A DNA stretch of 64,000 nt, from the NCBI RefSeq assembly GCF_988242995.1, contig NZ_OZ547043.1; one strand, given 5' to 3'. Below the pieces are notes generated by a model, which was given only the letters and a program-made list of their open reading frames with translations, ran no database searches and was not told the DNA's origin. This document shows, piece by piece, positions 17,876-55,788 of this stretch. A program made the translations under genes and the position numbers. Positions within the stretch are counted from its first letter, which is position 1, and each line of letters opens with the position of its first letter.

Positions 17876-18827
17876 ACCATTCCTTATGTTTCAGAGGGTT
17901 AGCCATGGCACCCAAAATATCAGAAATCACGTTAACAATAATGACCAGTGAGCCACACACCATCACTCCGGCGGAAATGGCTGCGTAATCCTGCTGGCGG
18001 ATAGCGTTAATTAACCAGCGCCCTAAACCCGGCCAGCTAAAAACCATTTCGGTGATCATCGCCAGCGTCAGCATGGTAGAAAACTGTAAGCCCAGGCGAG
18101 GAATAACCGGAGGTAACGCGTTATGCAGAACGTGGCGACGCAAAATAGTAAAGCGCGACAAACCGCGGGTCGCCGCTGCTTTAACATAGTTCTGGTCATA
18201 CACTTCGATAGTGCTAATACGCATCAGTCGGATCACTTCAGTTGTTGGCGCAACCGACAGGGTGATCACGGGCAATATCATATGGCGGATTGCGCTCATG
18301 ACCATTTCATCCCGCCATGGTGAGTCCGAAAGCCAGGCATCAATCAACGCAAAACCGGTAATCGGTTTCACTTCGTAGAGCAGATCGAAACGTCCTGAAA
18401 CGGGCAACCAACCTAGCGTGAGTGAACAAAACAGCGTCAACAGAAGCGCCAGCCAGAACACCGGGATTGAAAAGCCCAGTAAGGCGATGGCGTTGATCAA
18501 GTTATCCTGCCACTTATGGCGCGTAATCCCGGCAATCATCCCCACGGGGATGCCAACAATCAGCGCAAAACCGAAGGCGAGGATGCACAGTTCCATCGTC
18601 GCCGGGAAGACCTCTTTTAACTGTTCGGCAATCGGTTGACCGTTAATGCTGGAAACACCAAAATCCCAGTGGATCAGGCCATTAAACCAGAACACCCAGG
18701 CATTCCACAGTGACGCGCCTTGTAACGGCGCATGTGGGGTGAAATAGCTCAAGCTGAAGCCAACAAAGGTCAGCAGGAACAAGGTGACAATCAATAACAA
18801 AATGCGGCGTAAGGTGAAGATAATCAT
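17862..18827 (-). CDS. sapB: Peptide ABC transporter permease SapB, 321 aa
   Basis: DppB/OppB-like permease; operon context. Confidence 0.9.
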
Positions 18828-32674: not shown

Positions 32675-33415
<741 letters not shown>

Positions 33416-33468
33416 TAACATCCAGGCGGCGTCCGAACGCGCCGCCGCTCATCGTCTAAGGAGTCCTT

Positions 33469-33693
33469 ATGAGCGCGCTATTTCTGGCTATTCCGTTAAC
33501 CATTTTTGTGCTGTTTGTTTTACCGATCTGGTTATGGCTGCATTACAGCAATCGTTCTGGTCGCAGTGAATTGTCGCAAAGTGAGCAGCAGCGATTAGCG
33601 CAACTGGCTGATGAAGCAAAACGGATGCGCGAACGTATTCAGGCGCTGGAATCCATTCTTGATGCAGAACATCCGAACTGGAGGGATCGCTAA
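33469..33693 (+). CDS. pspB: Phage shock protein B, 74 aa
   Basis: Single-transmembrane small protein MSALFLAIPLTIFVLFVLPIWLWLHY. Confidence 0.9.
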   Translation: MSALFLAIPLTIFVLFVLPIWLWLHYSNRSGRSELSQSEQQRLAQLADEAKRMRERIQALESILDAEHPNWRDR

Positions 33694-34052
33694 TGGCGGG
33701 CATTAATCTCAATAAAAAATTATGGCGTATTCCACAGCAGGGTATGGTACGCGGCGTCTGCGCCGGGATTGCCAACTATTTTGATGTACCAGTAAAACTG
33801 GTGCGTATCCTGGTGGTGCTGTCGATTTTCTTCGGTCTGGCGCTGTTTACCCTGGTTGCTTACATCATTTTGTCATTTGCGCTTGATCCAATGCCGGACA
33901 ACATGGCCTTTGGTGAGCAGCTACCTTCCAGCAGCGAATTGCTGGATGAAGTCGACCGTGAACTGGCGGCAAGTGAAACGCGTTTACGCGAGATGGAACG
34001 TTATGTCACTTCCGATACTTTCACGTTACGTAGCCGTTTCCGTCAACTGTGA
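33693..34052 (+). CDS. pspC: Phage shock protein C, 119 aa
   Basis: Start overlaps the pspB stop; PspC family. Confidence 0.9.
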
Positions 34053-34060
34053 GGAAAGTT

Positions 34061-34282
34061 ATGAATACTCGCTGGCAACAGGCCGGGCAAAAGGTGAAGC
34101 CTGGTTTCAAATTAGCAGGCAAGCTGGTACTTCTTACCGCACTGCGCTATGGCCCGGCGGGTGTAGCTGGCTGGGCGATAAAATCAGTTGCTCGCCGACC
34201 ACTGAAAATGTTGCTGGCCGTGGCGCTGGAACCGCTGTTAAGTCGGGCTGCCAATAAACTGGCGCAGCGTTATAAAAGGTGA
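34061..34282 (+). CDS. pspD: Phage shock protein D, ~73 aa
   Basis: Start [20 protein letters not shown]; operon context. Confidence 0.85.
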
Positions 34283-34356
34283 GGGGAGTTTCGCAAAAAT
34301 TGTTAAAGCTAAGGCATATTATGGATGGCAATTTTCATCCATAGAAGGACGCTTAC

Positions 34357-34671
34357 ATGTTTAAAAAAGGCTTACTTGCTCTGACACTGGTGTTTTCACT
34401 GCCCGTTTTCGCCGCTGAACACTGGATCGATGTTCGTGTTCCAGAGCAGTATCAGCAAGAGCACGTTCAGGGGGCCATCAATATTCCCCTGAAGGAAGTA
34501 AAAGAGCGCATTGCCACCGCCGTTTCGGATAAAAACGACACCGTGAAAGTGTATTGCAATGCCGGACGCCAGTCAGGGCAGGCAAAAGAGATCCTTAGCG
34601 AGATGGGATATACTCACGTTGAGAACGCCGGTGGCCTGAAAGACATCGCAATGCCGAAGGTCAAAGGTTAA
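34357..34671 (+). CDS. pspE: Thiosulfate sulfurtransferase (rhodanese) PspE, 104 aa
   Basis: Signal peptide plus rhodanese active-site region (VKVYCNAGRQS). Confidence 0.9.
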   Translation: MFKKGLLALTLVFSLPVFAAEHWIDVRVPEQYQQEHVQGAINIPLKEVKERIATAVSDKNDTVKVYCNAGRQSGQAKEILSEMGYTHVENAGGLKDIAMPKVKG

Positions 34672-34713
34672 CAAATTACTTATTGAGCGGTGTAAACAAC
34701 GCCGCTTATTCAT

Positions 34714-34739
34714 TTGATAAATCAAAATTAACCCACATT
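34714..34739 (+). promoter_or_regulatory. Candidate sigma-32 (heat-shock) promoter of ycjX
   Basis: TTGATAA ... CCCACATT resembles the sigma-32 consensus (TTGAAA / CCCCATnT) ~50 bp upstream of ycjX; spacing approximate. Confidence 0.35.
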
Positions 34740-34789
34740 ATTATCTCCAGTATCTAATCCTTTCTACAGCTTTCTGGCACAGGACAGCA

Positions 34790-36187
34790 ATGAAGCGACT
34801 TAAAAATGAACTCAATGCGCTGGTGAATCGGGGTGTCGACAGACATCTGCGCCTCGCTGTAACCGGACTTAGCCGTAGCGGCAAAACAGCGTTTATCACC
34901 GCGATGGTTAATCAGTTGCTCAATATTCATGCCGGAGCACGTTTGCCGCTTTTAAGTGCGGTGCGTGAAGAGCGCCTGCTGGGCGTAAAACGCATTCCCC
35001 AGCGTGACTTTGGCATTCCGCGCTTCACCTATGATGAAGGACTGGCGCAGTTATATGGCGATCCTCCTGCCTGGCCGACGCCAACGCGCGGCGTCAGTGA
35101 AATCCGCCTGGCGCTACGTTTTAAATCGAACGATTCGCTGCTACGCCACTTCAAGGACACCTCCACGCTGTATCTGGAGATTGTGGATTATCCCGGCGAA
35201 TGGCTGCTCGATCTGCCGATGTTGGCGCAGGACTATTTAAGCTGGTCGCGCCAGATGACGGGCTTACTTAATGGTCAGCGCGGCGAATGGTCGGGGAAAT
35301 GGCGAATGATGTGCGAAGGGCTGGACCCGCTAGCGCCTGCCGACGAAAACCGGCTGGCAGACATTGCCGCTGCGTGGACCGATTATCTCCACCACTGTAA
35401 ACAGCAGGGGCTGCACTTTATTCAGCCAGGGCGCTTTGTCTTGCCGGGAGATATGGCAGGTGCGCCCGCGCTGCAATTCTTCCCGTGGCCGGATATCGAT
35501 GCCTGGGGCGAGTCCAAACTGGCGCAGGCCGATAAGCATACCAATGCCGGAATGCTGCGCGAGCGGTTTAATTATTACTGCGAGAAAGTGGTGAAGGGGT
35601 TCTATAAGAATCATTTTCTGCGCTTTGACCGCCAGATTGTGCTGGTGGATTGCCTGCAGCCTCTCAACAGTGGGCCACAGGCATTTAATGATATGCGTCT
35701 GGCGCTGACGCAGCTGATGCAAAGTTTCCACTACGGGCAGCGAACCCTGTTCCGGCGTTTGTTTTCGCCGGTTATCGATAAGCTATTGTTTGCTGCCACT
35801 AAAGCAGACCATGTGACCATCGATCAGCACGCCAATATGGTTTCATTACTGCAACAACTAATTCAGGATGCCTGGCAAAATGCGGCGTTCGAAGGGATCA
35901 GCATGGATTGCCTGGGGCTGGCGTCTGTTCAGGCGACCACCAGCGGAATTATTGATGTTAACGGTGAGAAAATCCCGGCGCTGCGCGGTAATCGACTCAG
36001 CGATGGCGCACCGCTCACTGTTTATCCTGGCGAAGTTCCCGCACGTTTGCCAGGTCAGGCGTTCTGGGATAAGCAAGGCTTCCAGTTTGAGGCGTTTCGT
36101 CCGCAGGTGATGGATGTCGACAAACCGCTGCCGCATATTCGTCTTGATGCTGCGCTGGAATTTTTAATAGGAGATAAATTGCGATGA
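34790..36187 (+). CDS. ycjX: YcjX, P-loop NTPase (DUF463), 465 aa
   Basis: Walker A GLSRSGKT; matches E. coli YcjX length. Confidence 0.88.
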
Positions 36188-37245
36188 CCGAACCGTTAAA
36201 ACCACGTATTGATTTCGACGGTCCACTGGAGGTTGATCAGAATCCAAAATTCAGGGCGCAACAGACCTTTGACGAAAATCAGGCGCAAAATTTTGCCCCG
36301 GCCACGCTCGACGAAGCGCAGGAAGAAGAGGGGCAAGTTGAAGCGGTGATGGACGCAGCGTTACGTCCGAAACGCAGCCTGTGGCGCAAAATGGTGATGG
36401 GCGGGTTGGCTCTGTTTGGCGCAAGCGTTGTCGGGCAGGGCGTGCAGTGGACAATGAACGCCTGGCAAACTCAGGATTGGGTAGCGCTGGGTGGATGTGC
36501 CGCTGGGGCATTGATTATCGGCGCTGGCGTAGGTTCTGTGGTAACAGAGTGGCGGCGCTTATGGCGCTTGCGACAGCGCGCCCATGAACGCGACGAAGCG
36601 CGCGATTTGTTGCACAGTCACGGTACGGGTAAAGGCCGCGCATTTTGCGAAAAACTGGCGCAGCAGGCGGGCATCGACCAGTCGCATCCGGCACTGCAAC
36701 GCTGGTATGCCTCAATCCATGAAACGCAAAACGATCGTGAAGTGGTCAGCCTGTATGCTCATCTGGTCCAGCCGGTTTTAGATGCCCAGGCGCGGCGCGA
36801 AATCAGCCGTTCGGCGGCGGAATCAACGTTGATGATTGCGGTCAGCCCGCTGGCGCTGGTGGATATGGCATTTATCGCCTGGCGCAATCTGCGTTTGATC
36901 AATCGCATCGCCACGCTGTATGGCATTGAACTGGGATATTACAGCCGTTTGCGCCTGTTTAAGCTGGTATTGCTGAATATCGCTTTCGCCGGAGCCAGCG
37001 AACTGGTGCGCGAAGTGGGGATGGACTGGATGTCGCAAGATCTCGCTGCGCGTTTGTCTACCCGGGCAGCTCAGGGGATTGGTGCAGGACTTCTGACGGC
37101 ACGACTGGGGATTAAAGCTATGGAGCTTTGCCGCCCTCTGCCGTGGATTGACGATGACAAACCTCGCCTCGGGGATTTCCGTCGTCAGCTTATCGGTCAG
37201 GTGAAAGAGACGCTGCAAAAAGGCAAAACGCCCAGCGAAAAATAA
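36184..37245 (+). CDS. ycjF: YcjF, inner-membrane protein (UPF0283), 353 aa
   Basis: Start overlaps the ycjX stop; membrane protein of the ycjXF pair. Confidence 0.88.
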
Positions 37246-37304
37246 TGCAATATCGGGTGCTGACCGGATATCTTTACGCCGAAGTGCCCGTTTTTCCGTC
37301 TTTG

Positions 37305-37322
37305 TGTCAATGATTGTTGACA
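37305..37322 (+). promoter_or_regulatory. TyrR box (TGTCAA-N6-TTGACA) in the tyrR promoter
   Basis: Near-consensus TyrR box palindrome ~70 bp upstream of the tyrR ATG. Confidence 0.6.
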
Positions 37323-37392
37323 GAAACCTTCCTGCTATCCAAATAGTGTCATATCATCATATTAATTGTTCTTTTTTCAGGTGAAGGTTCCC

Positions 37393-38934
37393 ATGCGTCT
37401 GGAAGTCTTTTGTGAAGACCGACTCGGTCTGACCCGCGAATTACTCGATCTACTCGTGCTAAGAGGCATTGATTTACGCGGTATTGAGATTGACCCCATT
37501 GGGCGAATCTACCTCAATTTTGCTGAACTGGAGTTTGAGAGTTTCAGCAGTCTGATGGCCGAAATACGCCGTATTGCAGGTGTTACCGATGTCCGTACTG
37601 TCCCGTGGATGCCTTCTGAACGTGAGCATCTGGCGTTGAGCGCGTTACTGGAAGCGTTGCCTGAACCTGTGCTCTCTGTCGATATGAAAAGCAAAGTGGA
37701 TATGGCGAACCCGGCGAGCTGTCAGCTTTTTGGGCAAAAATTGGATCGCCTGCGCAACCATACCGCCGCGCAATTGATTAACGGCTTTAATTTTTTGCGT
37801 TGGCTGGAAAGCGAACCGCAGGATTCGCATAACGAGCATGTCGTTATTAATGGGCAGAATTTCCTGATGGAGATTACGCCTGTTTATCTTCAGGATGAAA
37901 ATGATCAACACGTCCTGACCGGTGCGGTGGTGATGTTGCGATCAACGATTCGTATGGGTCGTCAGTTGCAAAATGTCGCCGCCCAGGACGTCAGCGCCTT
38001 TAGTCAAATTGTCGCCGTCAGCCCGAAAATGAAGCATGTTGTCGAACAGGCGCAGAAACTGGCGATGCTAAGCGCGCCATTGCTGATAACCGGTGATACC
38101 GGCACCGGAAAAGATCTCTTTGCGTATGCCTGTCATCAGGCAAGCCCACGCGCGGGCAAACCCTATCTGGCGCTGAACTGTGCTTCTATCCCGGAAGATG
38201 CGGTCGAGAGTGAACTGTTTGGTCATGCTCCGGAAGGGAAGAAAGGGTTCTTTGAGCAGGCGAACGGTGGTTCGGTACTGCTGGATGAAATAGGTGAGAT
38301 GTCACCACGGATGCAGGCGAAATTACTGCGTTTCCTTAATGATGGCACTTTCCGTCGGGTTGGCGAAGACCATGAGGTGCATGTCGATGTGCGGGTGATT
38401 TGCGCTACGCAGAAGAATCTGGTCGAACTGGTGCAAAAAGGCGTGTTCCGTGAAGATCTCTATTATCGTCTGAACGTGTTGACGCTCAATCTGCCGCCGC
38501 TACGTGACTGTCCGCAGGACATCATGCCTTTAACCGAGCTGTTCGTCGCCCGCTTTGCCGACGAGCAGGGCGTGCCGCGTCCGAAACTGGCCGCTGACCT
38601 GAATACTGTACTTACGCGTTATGCGTGGCCGGGAAATGTGCGGCAGTTAAAGAACGCTATTTATCGCGCACTAACACAACTGGACGGTTATGAGCTGCGT
38701 CCTCAGGATATTTTGTTGCCGGATTATGACGCCGCAACGGTAGCCGTGGGCGAAGATGCGATGGAAGGTTCGCTGGACGAAATCACCAGCCGTTTTGAAC
38801 GCTCGGTATTAACCCAGCTTTATCGCAATTATCCCAGCACGCGCAAACTGGCAAAACGTCTCGGCGTTTCGCATACCGCGATTGCCAATAAGTTGCGGGA
38901 ATATGGTCTGAGTCAGAAGAAGAACGAAGAGTAA
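37393..38934 (+). CDS. tyrR: Transcriptional regulator TyrR, 513 aa
   Basis: Start MRLEVFCEDRLGLTRELLDLLVLRGIDLRGIEIDPIGRIYLNF; AAA+ domain with C-terminal HTH. Confidence 0.93.
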   Translation: MRLEVFCEDRLGLTRELLDLLVLRGIDLRGIEIDPIGRIYLNFAELEFESFSSLMAEIRRIAGVTDVRTVPWMPSEREHLALSALLEALPEPVLSVDMKSKVDMANPASCQLFGQKLDRLRNHTAAQLINGFNFLRWLESEPQDSHNEHVVINGQNFLMEITPVYLQDENDQHVLTGAVVMLRSTIRMGRQLQNVAAQDVSAFSQIVAVSPKMKHVVEQAQKLAMLSAPLLITGDTGTGKDLFAYACHQASPRAGKPYLALNCASIPEDAVESELFGHAPEGKKGFFEQANGGSVLLDEIGEMSPRMQAKLLRFLNDGTFRRVGEDHEVHVDVRVICATQKNLVELVQKGVFREDLYYRLNVLTLNLPPLRDCPQDIMPLTELFVARFADEQGVPRPKLAADLNTVLTRYAWPGNVRQLKNAIYRALTQLDGYELRPQDILLPDYDAATVAVGEDAMEGSLDEITSRFERSVLTQLYRNYPSTRKLAKRLGVSHTAIANKLREYGLSQKKNEE

Positions 38935-51948: not shown

Positions 51949-53394
51949 TTATTTTAAAGGTGACGGTGTCACGTTTTTCGGGATAGGGCAGTGATACGGT
52001 TGCGTGTCCGTAACTTGCTGATGCTCTTGTTGGCATTCTTGCAATAGCCCTGAATCAATGAAGAGATTAAGTGTGGTTGCTGCCATAGTTTTCGCCGCCA
52101 GCAGCATTCCTTTATGAGCAATAGATGTTCGCCCCTGGCTAACCAGTTGCCACGTATGTAGCGGGGTACCGACGGCAAAGCAGGGGCTGAAACACTGGGC
52201 AACAGGCAGTTTCCAACTGACGTCGCCGACATCAGTCGATGCCGCAAGCACGTTATCGGTGGCGGCATATGGAGCGACTTCATTCGCCAGTACCGTTTCA
52301 CGATGACGTAGTGCAAAAGCCTTGCCGTTTTCGCCACCGGTTGCAGCGATATTATTCAGACTGTTTTGCCGATCGTTGGGGGTGAGCGTAGCCTGAATTT
52401 GTTTCGCAAAAGCCAGTTCTTCGCAGTTCCATTCCGGAGTACCAAAATGGGATAGGGCCTGGTACATGGCATTTTCTAAGGTGCGATTCGGGAGATAACT
52501 GGAACAGGCTTTGTCGAAGCGGCATTCAACCGTGGTTTCGGTCATCAATGCCGCACCTTCGGCGATTTTGGCGACCCGATCATAAATATGCTGCACATCG
52601 GTCATTTCGGGGGCGCGGATAAGATAAAGCACTTCTGCCTGCGCCTGGACCACGTTGGGCGAGATCCCGCCGCTATCTATGATGGCATAGTGTACGCGCG
52701 CTTTTTCAATAATATGTTCGTTGAGGAAGTTGGTGCCAGTGGTCATCAACGTTACGGCATCAAGGGCGCTGCGTCCCAAATGAGGGGAGTTCGCGGCATG
52801 TGCTGCGATCCCTTTAAAGCGCCATGATGCCTGAATGTTTGCCAGCGTGCGGGTATTGAACATACCGGCAAAGGCTTCCGGGTGCCAGGTGAGTGCCGCA
52901 TCCACATCATCAAATACCCCCTCGCGGACCATGAACGCTTTACCCGAGCCGCCTTCTTCGCCAGGACAACCATAAAAGCGCACCGTGCCGCCTTGCCCAT
53001 ATTGTTCCAGCCATTTCTTGACGGCTATTGCTGCGGCAAAGGCGGCGGTTCCCAGCAAATTGTGTCCGCAACCGTGACCATTTTCACCGGGCGTCGCGGA
53101 TGTAGGTTGCGCGCAACCTGCTTGCTGACTTAAACCTGCCAGGGCGTCATATTCCCCCAGCAGGGCGATAACCGGTTTGCCTTGACCAAACGAAGCAATA
53201 AAGGCATTTGGGATATTGCCTACGTTGCGGGTAACGGTGAAGCCTGCAGACTCCAGCGCCGAAGCCAGATGCTCCGCTGACCAGAACTCTTCAAAACGTG
53301 TTTCTGGATGATCCCAGATTTGATCGGCAATATCGGTATAACGTTGGCGATCGGCTTCAATCGCATCGTCGATAAAACGATAGATTTCCTGCAT
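51949..53394 (-). CDS. abgB: p-aminobenzoyl-glutamate hydrolase subunit B (M20 peptidase), 481 aa
   Basis: M20-family metallopeptidase; abg operon context. Confidence 0.9.
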   Translation of the reverse strand: MQEIYRFIDDAIEADRQRYTDIADQIWDHPETRFEEFWSAEHLASALESAGFTVTRNVGNIPNAFIASFGQGKPVIALLGEYDALAGLSQQAGCAQPTSATPGENGHGCGHNLLGTAAFAAAIAVKKWLEQYGQGGTVRFYGCPGEEGGSGKAFMVREGVFDDVDAALTWHPEAFAGMFNTRTLANIQASWRFKGIAAHAANSPHLGRSALDAVTLMTTGTNFLNEHIIEKARVHYAIIDSGGISPNVVQAQAEVLYLIRAPEMTDVQHIYDRVAKIAEGAALMTETTVECRFDKACSSYLPNRTLENAMYQALSHFGTPEWNCEELAFAKQIQATLTPNDRQNSLNNIAATGGENGKAFALRHRETVLANEVAPYAATDNVLAASTDVGDVSWKLPVAQCFSPCFAVGTPLHTWQLVSQGRTSIAHKGMLLAAKTMAATTLNLFIDSGLLQECQQEHQQVTDTQPYHCPIPKNVTPSPLK

Positions 53395-54704
53395 CAGATA
53401 CCTCGCGTCCAGGGAAAATTGAGCGCGGTGCGCGCCAGCGTTTCGACGGCAATAGCGAGAACCTGCTCGTCAAAATCGAATTTTTCGTTGTGATGACCTG
53501 CCGCCAGCTGTGTGCCAAACACCATATAGGAGGCTTGCCCTTGATGTTGCTGCACGCGGGCCATCATTAATGTGGCATCTTCGGAACCCGCAGGCGCTTC
53601 AACACGTTCAATGGCCTGATTGACCCCCGCGACCTGAGCTGCCTGACTTTGCAACCATGCGACCCATTGCGGCGAAGGAGAACTGGCGGTAGCTGCACCC
53701 ATCAGACGAGTTTCAACGCCGACACCATACATGGTTGCTGCGCCCTGAATCGCTTGTTGTGCACGGTCAAAAACATATTGATTAATGACGTCGCTGGCCC
53801 CGCGTGTTTCCACTTTCAGCAACGCTGAGGCGGGAACAACATTACGACCGCTTCCTGCCTGCATAACGCCCACGTTTACTCTGGAAGCGCCTTCGCTGTG
53901 CGGGGCGATTGCATGCAGTGCAAGAGTTGCTTGTGCTGCCGCCAACAAGGCATTGTGACCGTCTTCTGGTTTTGCGCCTGCGTGAGCGGCGGTCCCGGTG
54001 AAGTGCGCGTCAAATTTGGTGGTTGCCATAAAATTATCACTGCCGCACACCACGGTGCCCGCAGGTACGCCAGTGCCAATGTGCACGGCAGTAAAATAAT
54101 CAACATCATCCACTACACCTGCATCGACCATCGCCCGCGCGCCACGCGTACCTTCTTCTGCAGGTTGAAAAATCAGTTTGATGACGCCATGTAGTCCGGA
54201 CTCGAACTGTTTAAGGGTATGCGCCAGCCCAAGCCCAATGGTGGTATGTCCATCATGACCACAGGCATGCATCATTCCGGCGTTACATGACGCAAAACCG
54301 TCGCGGTAGGGGCGATGGCTGACATCCTGCTCTTCACTGAGATCCAGCGCGTCCATATCGACACGGAAAGCCATCACCGGACCGGGGCGACCGGTATCCA
54401 GGGTGGCGACGATACCAGTGAAACCGCCTTCAAAAGCCGCAATCCATTGTTCTAGCGCACCCTGTTGACGAGCGCGCTCGAATTCGCGTTGTAGAGTGAA
54501 TTCATCAGGTAATCCCATCCGGCTACTTTCATTAACTACTTCGCGGCCCAGCGCCAGTGAATAACCGAGCTGGTGCAATTCTTCCGCAACAAGGGTGGCA
54601 GTGCGGAATTCCACCCAGCCAGACTCTGCATAGTGGTGAAAATCACGTCGCCAGTGCGATAATTTTGGGGCAAGCGAATTAATAAATTGATTCAAAGACT
54701 CCAT
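53394..54704 (-). CDS. abgA: p-aminobenzoyl-glutamate hydrolase subunit A (M20 peptidase), 436 aa
   Basis: Start MESLNQFINSLAPKLSHWRRDFHHYAESGW; M20 family. Confidence 0.9.
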   Translation of the reverse strand: MESLNQFINSLAPKLSHWRRDFHHYAESGWVEFRTATLVAEELHQLGYSLALGREVVNESSRMGLPDEFTLQREFERARQQGALEQWIAAFEGGFTGIVATLDTGRPGPVMAFRVDMDALDLSEEQDVSHRPYRDGFASCNAGMMHACGHDGHTTIGLGLAHTLKQFESGLHGVIKLIFQPAEEGTRGARAMVDAGVVDDVDYFTAVHIGTGVPAGTVVCGSDNFMATTKFDAHFTGTAAHAGAKPEDGHNALLAAAQATLALHAIAPHSEGASRVNVGVMQAGSGRNVVPASALLKVETRGASDVINQYVFDRAQQAIQGAATMYGVGVETRLMGAATASSPSPQWVAWLQSQAAQVAGVNQAIERVEAPAGSEDATLMMARVQQHQGQASYMVFGTQLAAGHHNEKFDFDEQVLAIAVETLARTALNFPWTRGI

Positions 54705-54879
54705 AACCTTTCCCGTCATCAGTAAAAAGTGTGACCCGGTTCACGTAGCGATAGTTTTTACTTATCACTAACTGATTTTTCACAGTTTTAACCGTTCATA
54801 AATTACCCTGACACAATCATCTGCATTAAAGTAGATGCCAGTTTCTTTGGTCTGATAAATAACGGTTATCGGTGGCGTC

Positions 54880-55788
54880 ATGGCTTTTCAGGTAAAAATT
54901 CATCAAATTCGGGCTTTTGTTGAAGTGGCTCGTCAGGGCAGCATTCGCGGAGCGAGCCGAATGTTGAATATGTCGCAACCGGCACTGAGTAAATCTATTC
55001 AGGAGCTGGAAGAAGGGTTGGCGGCACAACTCTTTTTTCGCCGTAGTAAAGGCGTGACGTTAACTGATGCCGGCGAAAGTTTTTATCAGCACGCCAGTCT
55101 TATTCTTGAAGAGCTGCGCGCAGCGCAAGAGGATATTCGCCAACGACAAGGGCAACTGGCAGGGCAAATTAATATCGGCATGGGGGCCAGTATTTCCCGC
55201 AGTCTGATGCCAGCTGTCATATCTCGTTTTCATCAGCAGCATCCGCAGGTAAAAGTACGCATTATGGAAGGGCAACTGGTATCGATGATTAATGAATTGC
55301 GCCAGGGGGAACTGGATTTCACCATCAATACCTATTATCAGGGACCCTACGACCACGAATTTACTTTTGAGAAATTACTGGAAAAGCAATTCGCGATCTT
55401 TTGCCGCCCGGGACACCCCGCCATTGGTGTCCGTTCGATCAAACAGTTACTGGACTACAGCTGGACAATGCCGACGCCACACGGCAGCTACTACAAACAG
55501 TTGAGTGAATTGCTTGACGATCAGGCGCAAACGCCACAGGTCGGTGTAGTCTGCGAGACGTTCTCAGCCTGTATCAGTCTGGTGGCAAAAAGCGATTTTC
55601 TCAGCATACTGCCTGAAGAAATGGGCTGCGATCCCTTGCACGGACAGGGGCTGGTGATGTTGCCGGTTAGCGAAATTTTACCGAAAGCGACCTATTATTT
55701 GATTCAGCGGCGTGATAGTCGCCAGACACCACTGACCGCGTCATTAATCACGCAATTTCGGCGAGAATGCGGCTATCTGCAAAGTTAA
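54880..55788 (+). CDS. abgR: LysR-type regulator AbgR, 302 aa
   Basis: LysR HTH; divergent from abgA. Confidence 0.9.
   Translation: MAFQVKIHQIRAFVEVARQGSIRGASRMLNMSQPALSKSIQELEEGLAAQLFFRRSKGVTLTDAGESFYQHASLILEELRAAQEDIRQRQGQLAGQINIGMGASISRSLMPAVISRFHQQHPQVKVRIMEGQLVSMINELRQGELDFTINTYYQGPYDHEFTFEKLLEKQFAIFCRPGHPAIGVRSIKQLLDYSWTMPTPHGSYYKQLSELLDDQAQTPQVGVVCETFSACISLVAKSDFLSILPEEMGCDPLHGQGLVMLPVSEILPKATYYLIQRRDSRQTPLTASLITQFRRECGYLQS

Follow-up and report, generated by a model that had tools for sequence, protein, structure and literature searches.

Promoters of the heat-shock sigma factor sigma-32 (RpoH) are described in the literature as CTTGAAA-[11-15]-CCCCATnT or as CTTGAA-N13-17-CCCCATNT, and the C residues at –15 and –14 have been assigned an "extended –10" role (PMC10216364). 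A promoter of this kind is already known for Escherichia coli ycjX: RegulonDB and Nonaka 2006, in the form in which PMC3041696 quotes them, assign the ycjX promoter to sigma-32 and give ycjX-ycjF-tyrR as the transcription unit. In K-12, ChIP-chip gives sigma-32 a signal of 2.9 at ycjX, the same as at dnaK (PMC2996942, Table 2), and Cho et al. 2014 report both sigma-70 and sigma-32 binding there (PMC3923258, Table S6), at a ChIP-chip resolution too coarse to tie a signal to one hexamer. In BL21(DE3), ycjX and ycjF are early heat-induced genes (PMC7572479). Both genes also rise during phiX174 infection of E. coli C, alongside the psp genes and the sigma-32 regulon, of which ibpA, ibpB, and fxsA are strongly induced. 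Because tyrR has start sites of its own, the "ycjX-ycjF-tyrR" unit describes read-through and is not the sole route of tyrR expression. All of these experiments stem from K-12 (which carries a different allele from the one studied here), BL21(DE3), and E. coli C.

The K-12 start has been mapped by 5' RNA-seq to 1384070, 47 nt before the ATG (PMC4488433, S7). This base lies within ...ggcccccacattcatatcC and puts the –10 octamer CCCCACAT at –15 to –8, the geometry that dnaK P1 shows in the cryo-EM scaffold. Most stationary-phase transcripts of K-12 ycjX start with 5'-CC, one base further upstream, and are sensitive to oligoribonuclease (PMC4488433); this sensitivity indicates primer-dependent initiation (positions 18070–18071 of the K-12 locus, L001). 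Two other K-12 starts, at U00096.2 1381942 and 1381977 (PMC3923258; Cho et al. 2014), convert to ~197 and ~162 nt before the ATG (L001 ~17921 and ~17956), in or beside the start of ycjW, and neither equals the –47 start. In S. Typhimurium, ycjX and ycjF (STM1685 and STM1684) are among the genes most strongly activated by PreA/QseB (13.9- and 6.1-fold on arrays, 38- and 61-fold by qRT-PCR; PMC2653508), which suggests that a further regulator acts at or near the ycjX promoter. Our literature searches on YcjX function and on the transcription start of the allele described below returned nothing useful.

Here, we analyze the ycjX upstream region in a 64-kb stretch of DNA (hereafter, the window, meaning all 64,000 nucleotides). 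An earlier note, made from the sequence of the window, had tentatively proposed a sigma-32-like promoter upstream of ycjX-ycjF-tyrR at 34714–34739. We find that the window carries a minority, pspE-adjacent allele of the ycjX promoter with a weaker –10 element, correct its register and spacing, and conclude that it is probably a promoter for sigma-32 RNA polymerase, an assignment that rests on orthology.

Results

The element lies directly behind the pspE terminator

The genes that flank the element are all on the plus strand. The 104-aa ORF at 34357–34671 has an equivalog-level NCBIfam match to PspE. It is followed by ycjX (34790–36187, 465 aa), identified from the ORF list and the annotation of matching E. 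coli genomes, and by ycjF (36184–37245, 353 aa; NCBIfam TIGR01620, E = 1e-129, and the annotation of strain 042), whose start overlaps the ycjX stop by 4 nt. After a further 147 bp comes tyrR (37393–38934, 513 aa; NCBIfam TyrR equivalog, 1056 bits). E. coli chromosomes with annotated pspE, ycjX, ycjF, and tyrR match the region at 98.9 to 99.5%. A scan of 37150–37450 found no terminator-like hairpin between ycjF and tyrR, so part of the transcription from ycjXF would continue into tyrR. Within this second gap, upstream of tyrR, TGTGTCAATGATTGTTGACA (37303–37322) forms an imperfect palindrome; we take it to resemble a TyrR box, which would agree with autoregulation of tyrR.

The 118-bp gap between pspE and ycjX (34672–34789) contains TTGATAA at 34714–34720 and CCCACATT at 34732–34739, and the full span of 34714–34739 reads TTGATAAATCAAAATTAACCCACATT. 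Upstream of these elements, the terminator scan located an intrinsic terminator hairpin of pspE with a 10-pair stem (34684–34708, plus strand). Its RNA fold has a free energy of –14.7 kcal/mol (z = –4.2), and none of 200 shuffled sequences was equally stable. The U-rich tail TTCATTTGAT (34709–34718) reaches into the –35 element described below. Thus, a GC-rich hairpin followed by a U-tract, as expected of a rho-independent terminator, is present 3' of pspE, with a tract that is interrupted (T at 5 of 8 bases). At the other end of the gap, reading of the sequence and alignment to K-12 identify a Shine-Dalgarno-like CAGGAC (34780–34785, plus strand) upstream of the ycjX ATG, within a block, GCACAGGACAGCAATG, that is the same in K-12 and the window. 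A permissive scan of 33000–36000 returned no Rfam family and hence no known leader element.

The –10 element is one base further downstream than first read

We built a position weight matrix (PWM) with a spacer model from 17 MG1655 promoters of sigma-32 targets in PMC2996942, Table 2. In its best register, the window site consists of a –35 element TTTGATA (34713–34719; 5 of 7 positions of consensus CTTGAAA, with the core TTGATA at 34714–34719), a 13-bp spacer aatcaaaattaac (34720–34732), and a –10 element CCACATTA (CCaCATTa, 34733–34740; 5 of the 7 specified positions of CCCCATnT), all on the plus strand. The –10 keeps C–15, C–14, C–12, A–11, and T–10, and thereby retains the positions of established importance (the "extended –10" pair C–15/C–14 together with A–11 and T–10). 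Both of its mismatches, A at –13 and A at –8, have precedents, a non-C at –13 in clpB, hspQ, and fxsA and an A at –8 in grpE and clpP. Counted from the CTTGAA hexamer, the spacer is 14 bp; it is within the accepted sigma-32 range, and 13 bp is the length found in 10 of the 17 reference promoters (14 bp in 6 and 11 bp in 1).

Two other registers were considered. The one chosen in the earlier note takes CCCACATT as the –10 element at a spacing of 12 bp and matches just 4 of the 7 specified positions. The K-12-like register, ACCCACAT with an 11-bp spacer, has a lower PWM score (8.6) and is struck by C34732T, the sole nearby change in a divergent E. coli (L004), a substitution that leaves the CCACATTA register untouched. 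Because the gapless alignment to Citrobacter sets the register, we place the –10 at 34733–34740 with a 13-bp spacer, shifting the first parse by one base. The impression that the spacing was shorter than that of a textbook sigma-32 promoter therefore arose from the register chosen, and the coordinates given for the element hold except that it extends one base further, to 34740.

The motif by itself does not exceed chance

The PWM score of the window site is 10.1, below all 17 reference promoters (15.5 to 27) and below K-12 ycjX (16.4), although the matrix is partly circular because the reference promoters were parsed by consensus near ChIP-listed genes and not from mapped starts. Across both strands of the window it ranks 25th, with 25 sites scoring at least as well, and equally long random sequences from a first-order Markov model contain 38 ± 6.5 sites of at least 10.1. 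The site is thus neither as good a match as proven promoters nor rarer than chance. When only the top-scoring site of a 150-nt gene-upstream stretch is counted, it falls near the 96th percentile (null values: 9.08 at the 95th, 13.15 at the 99th). The resemblance to the sigma-32 consensus that had first drawn attention to the site is real in sequence and location, but the bare pattern does not rise above chance and proves nothing. With the motif at chance level, a sigma-32 assignment reaches the window allele only via orthology.

The best match to the matrix in the whole window is elsewhere, GTTGAAA-14-CGCCATGT at 54164–54192 on the plus strand (score 18.3). It is antisense within a 441-aa minus-strand ORF (53394–54719) adjacent to a 302-aa ORF (54880–55788); from their position relative to K-12, we take these to be probably abgA and abgR. 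It could be fortuitous, or it could be a sigma-32 site that lies antisense within a gene.

Classical sigma-32 promoters (dnaK P1, groS, htpG, grpE, and ibpA, among others) share with the window site the bipartite CTTGAAA/CCCCATnT layout, a spacer of 13 to 14 bp in their case, and a location within ~100 nt of the start codon. They differ from it in strength, most matching 6 to 7 positions in each element compared to 5 of 7 in the window. The first base of the –35 heptamer is T in the window and C or G in the reference promoters.

The window site corresponds to the K-12 ycjX promoter

We next set the window site beside its two closest counterparts. The K-12 promoter serves the same gene and has the TTGATAA –35, the CCCACATT block, and an identical ribosome-binding region, and its –10 ends 54 nt before the ATG compared to 49 nt in the window. 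Its best –10 is CCCCACAT after a 14-bp spacer, compared to CCACATTA after 13 bp in the window, and from the –10 to the ribosome-binding region the two leaders are unrelated. Upstream, the neighbor of ycjX is ycjW in K-12, at the end of a 14-kb ycjM-ycjW island, and pspE in the window. The Citrobacter promoters (FP75, werkmanii, and youngae) share with the window the adjacent pspE and the order of hairpin then promoter. Citrobacter FP75 aligns to the window without gaps through the –35, the 13-bp spacer (9 of 13 bases the same), and the –10, and reads GTTGATA-13-CCCCATCT, with a full-consensus –10 and a PWM score of 22.3, where the same columns of the window hold TTTGATA-13-CCACATTA, two octamer substitutions apart. 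From the shared gene, the similar distance to its start, and this collinearity with a consensus promoter in Citrobacter, we conclude that the window element is orthologous to the K-12 ycjX promoter in both position and sequence, as judged by alignment.

The two arrangements are alleles of one locus within E. coli. In MG1655, 14 kb separate pspE from ycjX (ycjM through ompG, and ycjW on the opposite strand). The window lacks this ycjMNOPQRSTUV-ompG-ycjW cluster (K-12 L001 4005–18117), and pspE adjoins ycjX, as in strain 042; the DNA in which the –162 and –197 starts of K-12 lie is likewise absent from the window. Of 5,426 complete E. coli genomes, 372 contain the window intergenic sequence and 5,043 the K-12 ycjW-ycjX sequence, which together make up all 5,415 genomes matched by a K-12 query. 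Coding flanks are ~98% identical between the window and K-12, while ~83 bp (34691–34773) are allele-specific, a stretch that takes in the terminator's 3' half, the promoter spacer, and the greater part of the leader. The alleles are identical solely from GCACAGGACAGCAATG onward; upstream of it they share TTGATAA..TCAA and CCCACATT and differ in spacer, –10 flank, and leader.

The pspE-adjacent form is common to the window, E. albertii, and Citrobacter. Enterobacter and Lelliottia appear to have the ycjW-linked form, judging by CATCTTACTGGAG, a motif conserved ahead of ycjX. Spacers group by type of arrangement, the window with Citrobacter and K-12 with Lelliottia (ATTGATA-13-CCCCATTT) and Enterobacter. 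Both Escherichia alleles have the unusual CCCACATT block despite this grouping. The origin of the alleles could possibly be an ancient polymorphism, horizontal transfer together with the island, or gene conversion.

A sigma-32-type site precedes ycjX in many Enterobacteriaceae

To place the allele in a wider context, we compared ycjX loci from 80 species (no Salmonella locus among them), inspecting and scoring their upstream regions. In ~18 loci of about ten Enterobacteriaceae genera, all with an upstream region that belongs to ycjX itself, the highest sigma-32 score in the 150 nt before ycjX is 10 to 22, and the –10 of that match ends 43 to 59 nt before the ATG despite unalignable flanks and a varying upstream neighbor. 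The genera with such a site include Escherichia, Citrobacter, Enterobacter, Lelliottia, Pluralibacter, Kosakonia, Phytobacter, and Cedecea.

At closer range, an alignment of the window, E. albertii, the divergent E. coli, and three Citrobacter is free of gaps from TTGATAA to the –10. Its invariant columns are TTGATAA (34714–34720) and CC..AT, which are the most informative positions of the consensus. K-12, Enterobacter, and Lelliottia have TTGATAA too, and the TTGA core of the –35 is constant across the aligned Escherichia, Citrobacter, Enterobacter, and Lelliottia promoters. Compared to E. albertii and the divergent E. coli, the window has no substitution in the –35 and –10, 1 to 2 in the spacer, 6 in the 49-nt leader, and 3 to 9 in the terminator region.

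The remaining arrangement is found in Serratia, Yersinia, Rahnella, Pantoea, Erwinia, and others (loci L021–L063, ~2350–2500), where ycjX abuts or overlaps the preceding CDS of the psp operon; the position of ycjX straight after psp genes in many Enterobacterales is also noted in PMC3041696. In these loci we found no sigma-32-like site before ycjX, just a ribosome-binding site.

Other readings of the element

The strongest competing interpretation is that the element is mainly or also a sigma-70 promoter with a similar start, of dual or shifted specificity, to which sigma-32 adds little or only a part. A sigma-70-like –10, CATTAT (34736–34741, plus strand), follows TTGATA (34714–34719) by 16 bp, and the scan scores TTGATA-16-CATTAT at 9/12, with the A at position 2 and the T at position 6 of the –10. 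This overlapping hexamer sets the window apart from classical sigma-32 promoters and occurs only in the window allele, the K-12 –35 being at least 19 bp from any –10-like hexamer; the degenerate sigma-32 –10 of the window and the presence of sigma-70 in the K-12 ChIP-chip data also fit. However, such sigma-70 sites occur at chance frequency (2 found versus 1.2 expected in 700 bp), and the K-12 sigma-70 signal may stem from the divergent ycjW promoter or from the upstream starts. Conservation between genera falls on CC..AT, spaced as in sigma-32 promoters, and not on a TATAAT-like hexamer (Citrobacter has CATCTT). We consider this interpretation unlikely.

We regard as more unlikely still that the resemblance is fortuitous and that ycjX-ycjF depends on transcripts that start in the psp operon or at a pspE-proximal promoter and run past a leaky terminator. 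In its favor are the chance-level pattern, the interrupted U-tract of the pspE terminator, the promoterless ycjX directly behind a psp CDS in Serratia, Yersinia, Rahnella, and Pantoea among many Enterobacterales, and the joint rise of ycjX/ycjF with the psp genes in phiX174 infection. Yet that infection strongly induced the sigma-32 regulon as well, the hairpin behind pspE is stable, the –35 and –10 are the very positions conserved with E. albertii and Citrobacter, and in the ~18 loci of about ten genera the distance between ycjX and a sigma-32-type site is kept. A minus-strand sigma-70-like site from 34766 to 34737 was set aside as a chance-level match directed into the 3' end of pspE.

Discussion

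Our analysis identifies the motif behind the pspE terminator as probably the ycjX promoter for sigma-32 RNA polymerase. The original proposal of such a promoter upstream of ycjX-ycjF-tyrR thus gains support from K-12 orthology, conservation, and the K-12 and BL21(DE3) literature, and the membership of ycjX and ycjF in the heat-shock regulon, on which the proposal drew, agrees with their early heat induction in BL21(DE3) (PMC7572479) and with sigma-32 ChIP in K-12. From the combined analysis, we infer that sigma-32 still uses the weaker window allele.

In the mechanism we propose, region 4 of sigma-32 would contact TTTGATA (34713–34719). After the 13-bp spacer, CC at 34733–34734 would serve as the "extended –10" and CAT at 34736–34738 would form the core –10, in which A34737 is the –11 base. 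Placing +1 at 8 nt past the last base of the –10 octamer, as in K-12 and dnaK, predicts a start at 34746–34749 (plus strand), most likely C34748 with a leader of ~42 nt, from which transcription would proceed through ycjX and ycjF. Given the TCC at the predicted start, primer-dependent initiation could apply to the window allele too.

A promoter placed right behind the pspE terminator would insulate ycjXF from the sigma-54/PspF-driven psp operon and put it under heat-shock control. Depending on genus, ycjX has its own sigma-32-type promoter or is fused to the psp operon, so that one gene pair falls under two different stress responses: PspF/sigma-54 appears to control ycjXF in the Serratia/Yersinia-type genera, and sigma-32 appears to do so in Escherichia, Citrobacter, and Enterobacter. 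For annotation, the element gives the expected ycjXF start in genomes without the ycjM-ycjW island.

Finally, the two E. coli alleles invite a comparison of how the same promoter is built. The distance from TTGATA to CACATT is 3 bp shorter in the window (14 bp) than in K-12 (17 bp), and the –10 register of the window appears to be shifted by 2 nt (CCACATTA with a 13-bp spacer in place of CCCCACAT with a 14-bp spacer). We postulate, as a speculation that is probably wrong in this form, that the alleles are a natural case of compensated promoter turnover, in which the shifted –10 register of the window creates TTGATA-16-CATTAT. If this were true, then in 7% of E. coli and in E. albertii the basal sigma-70 output of ycjXF would be higher, and its heat-inducible output weaker, than in K-12.
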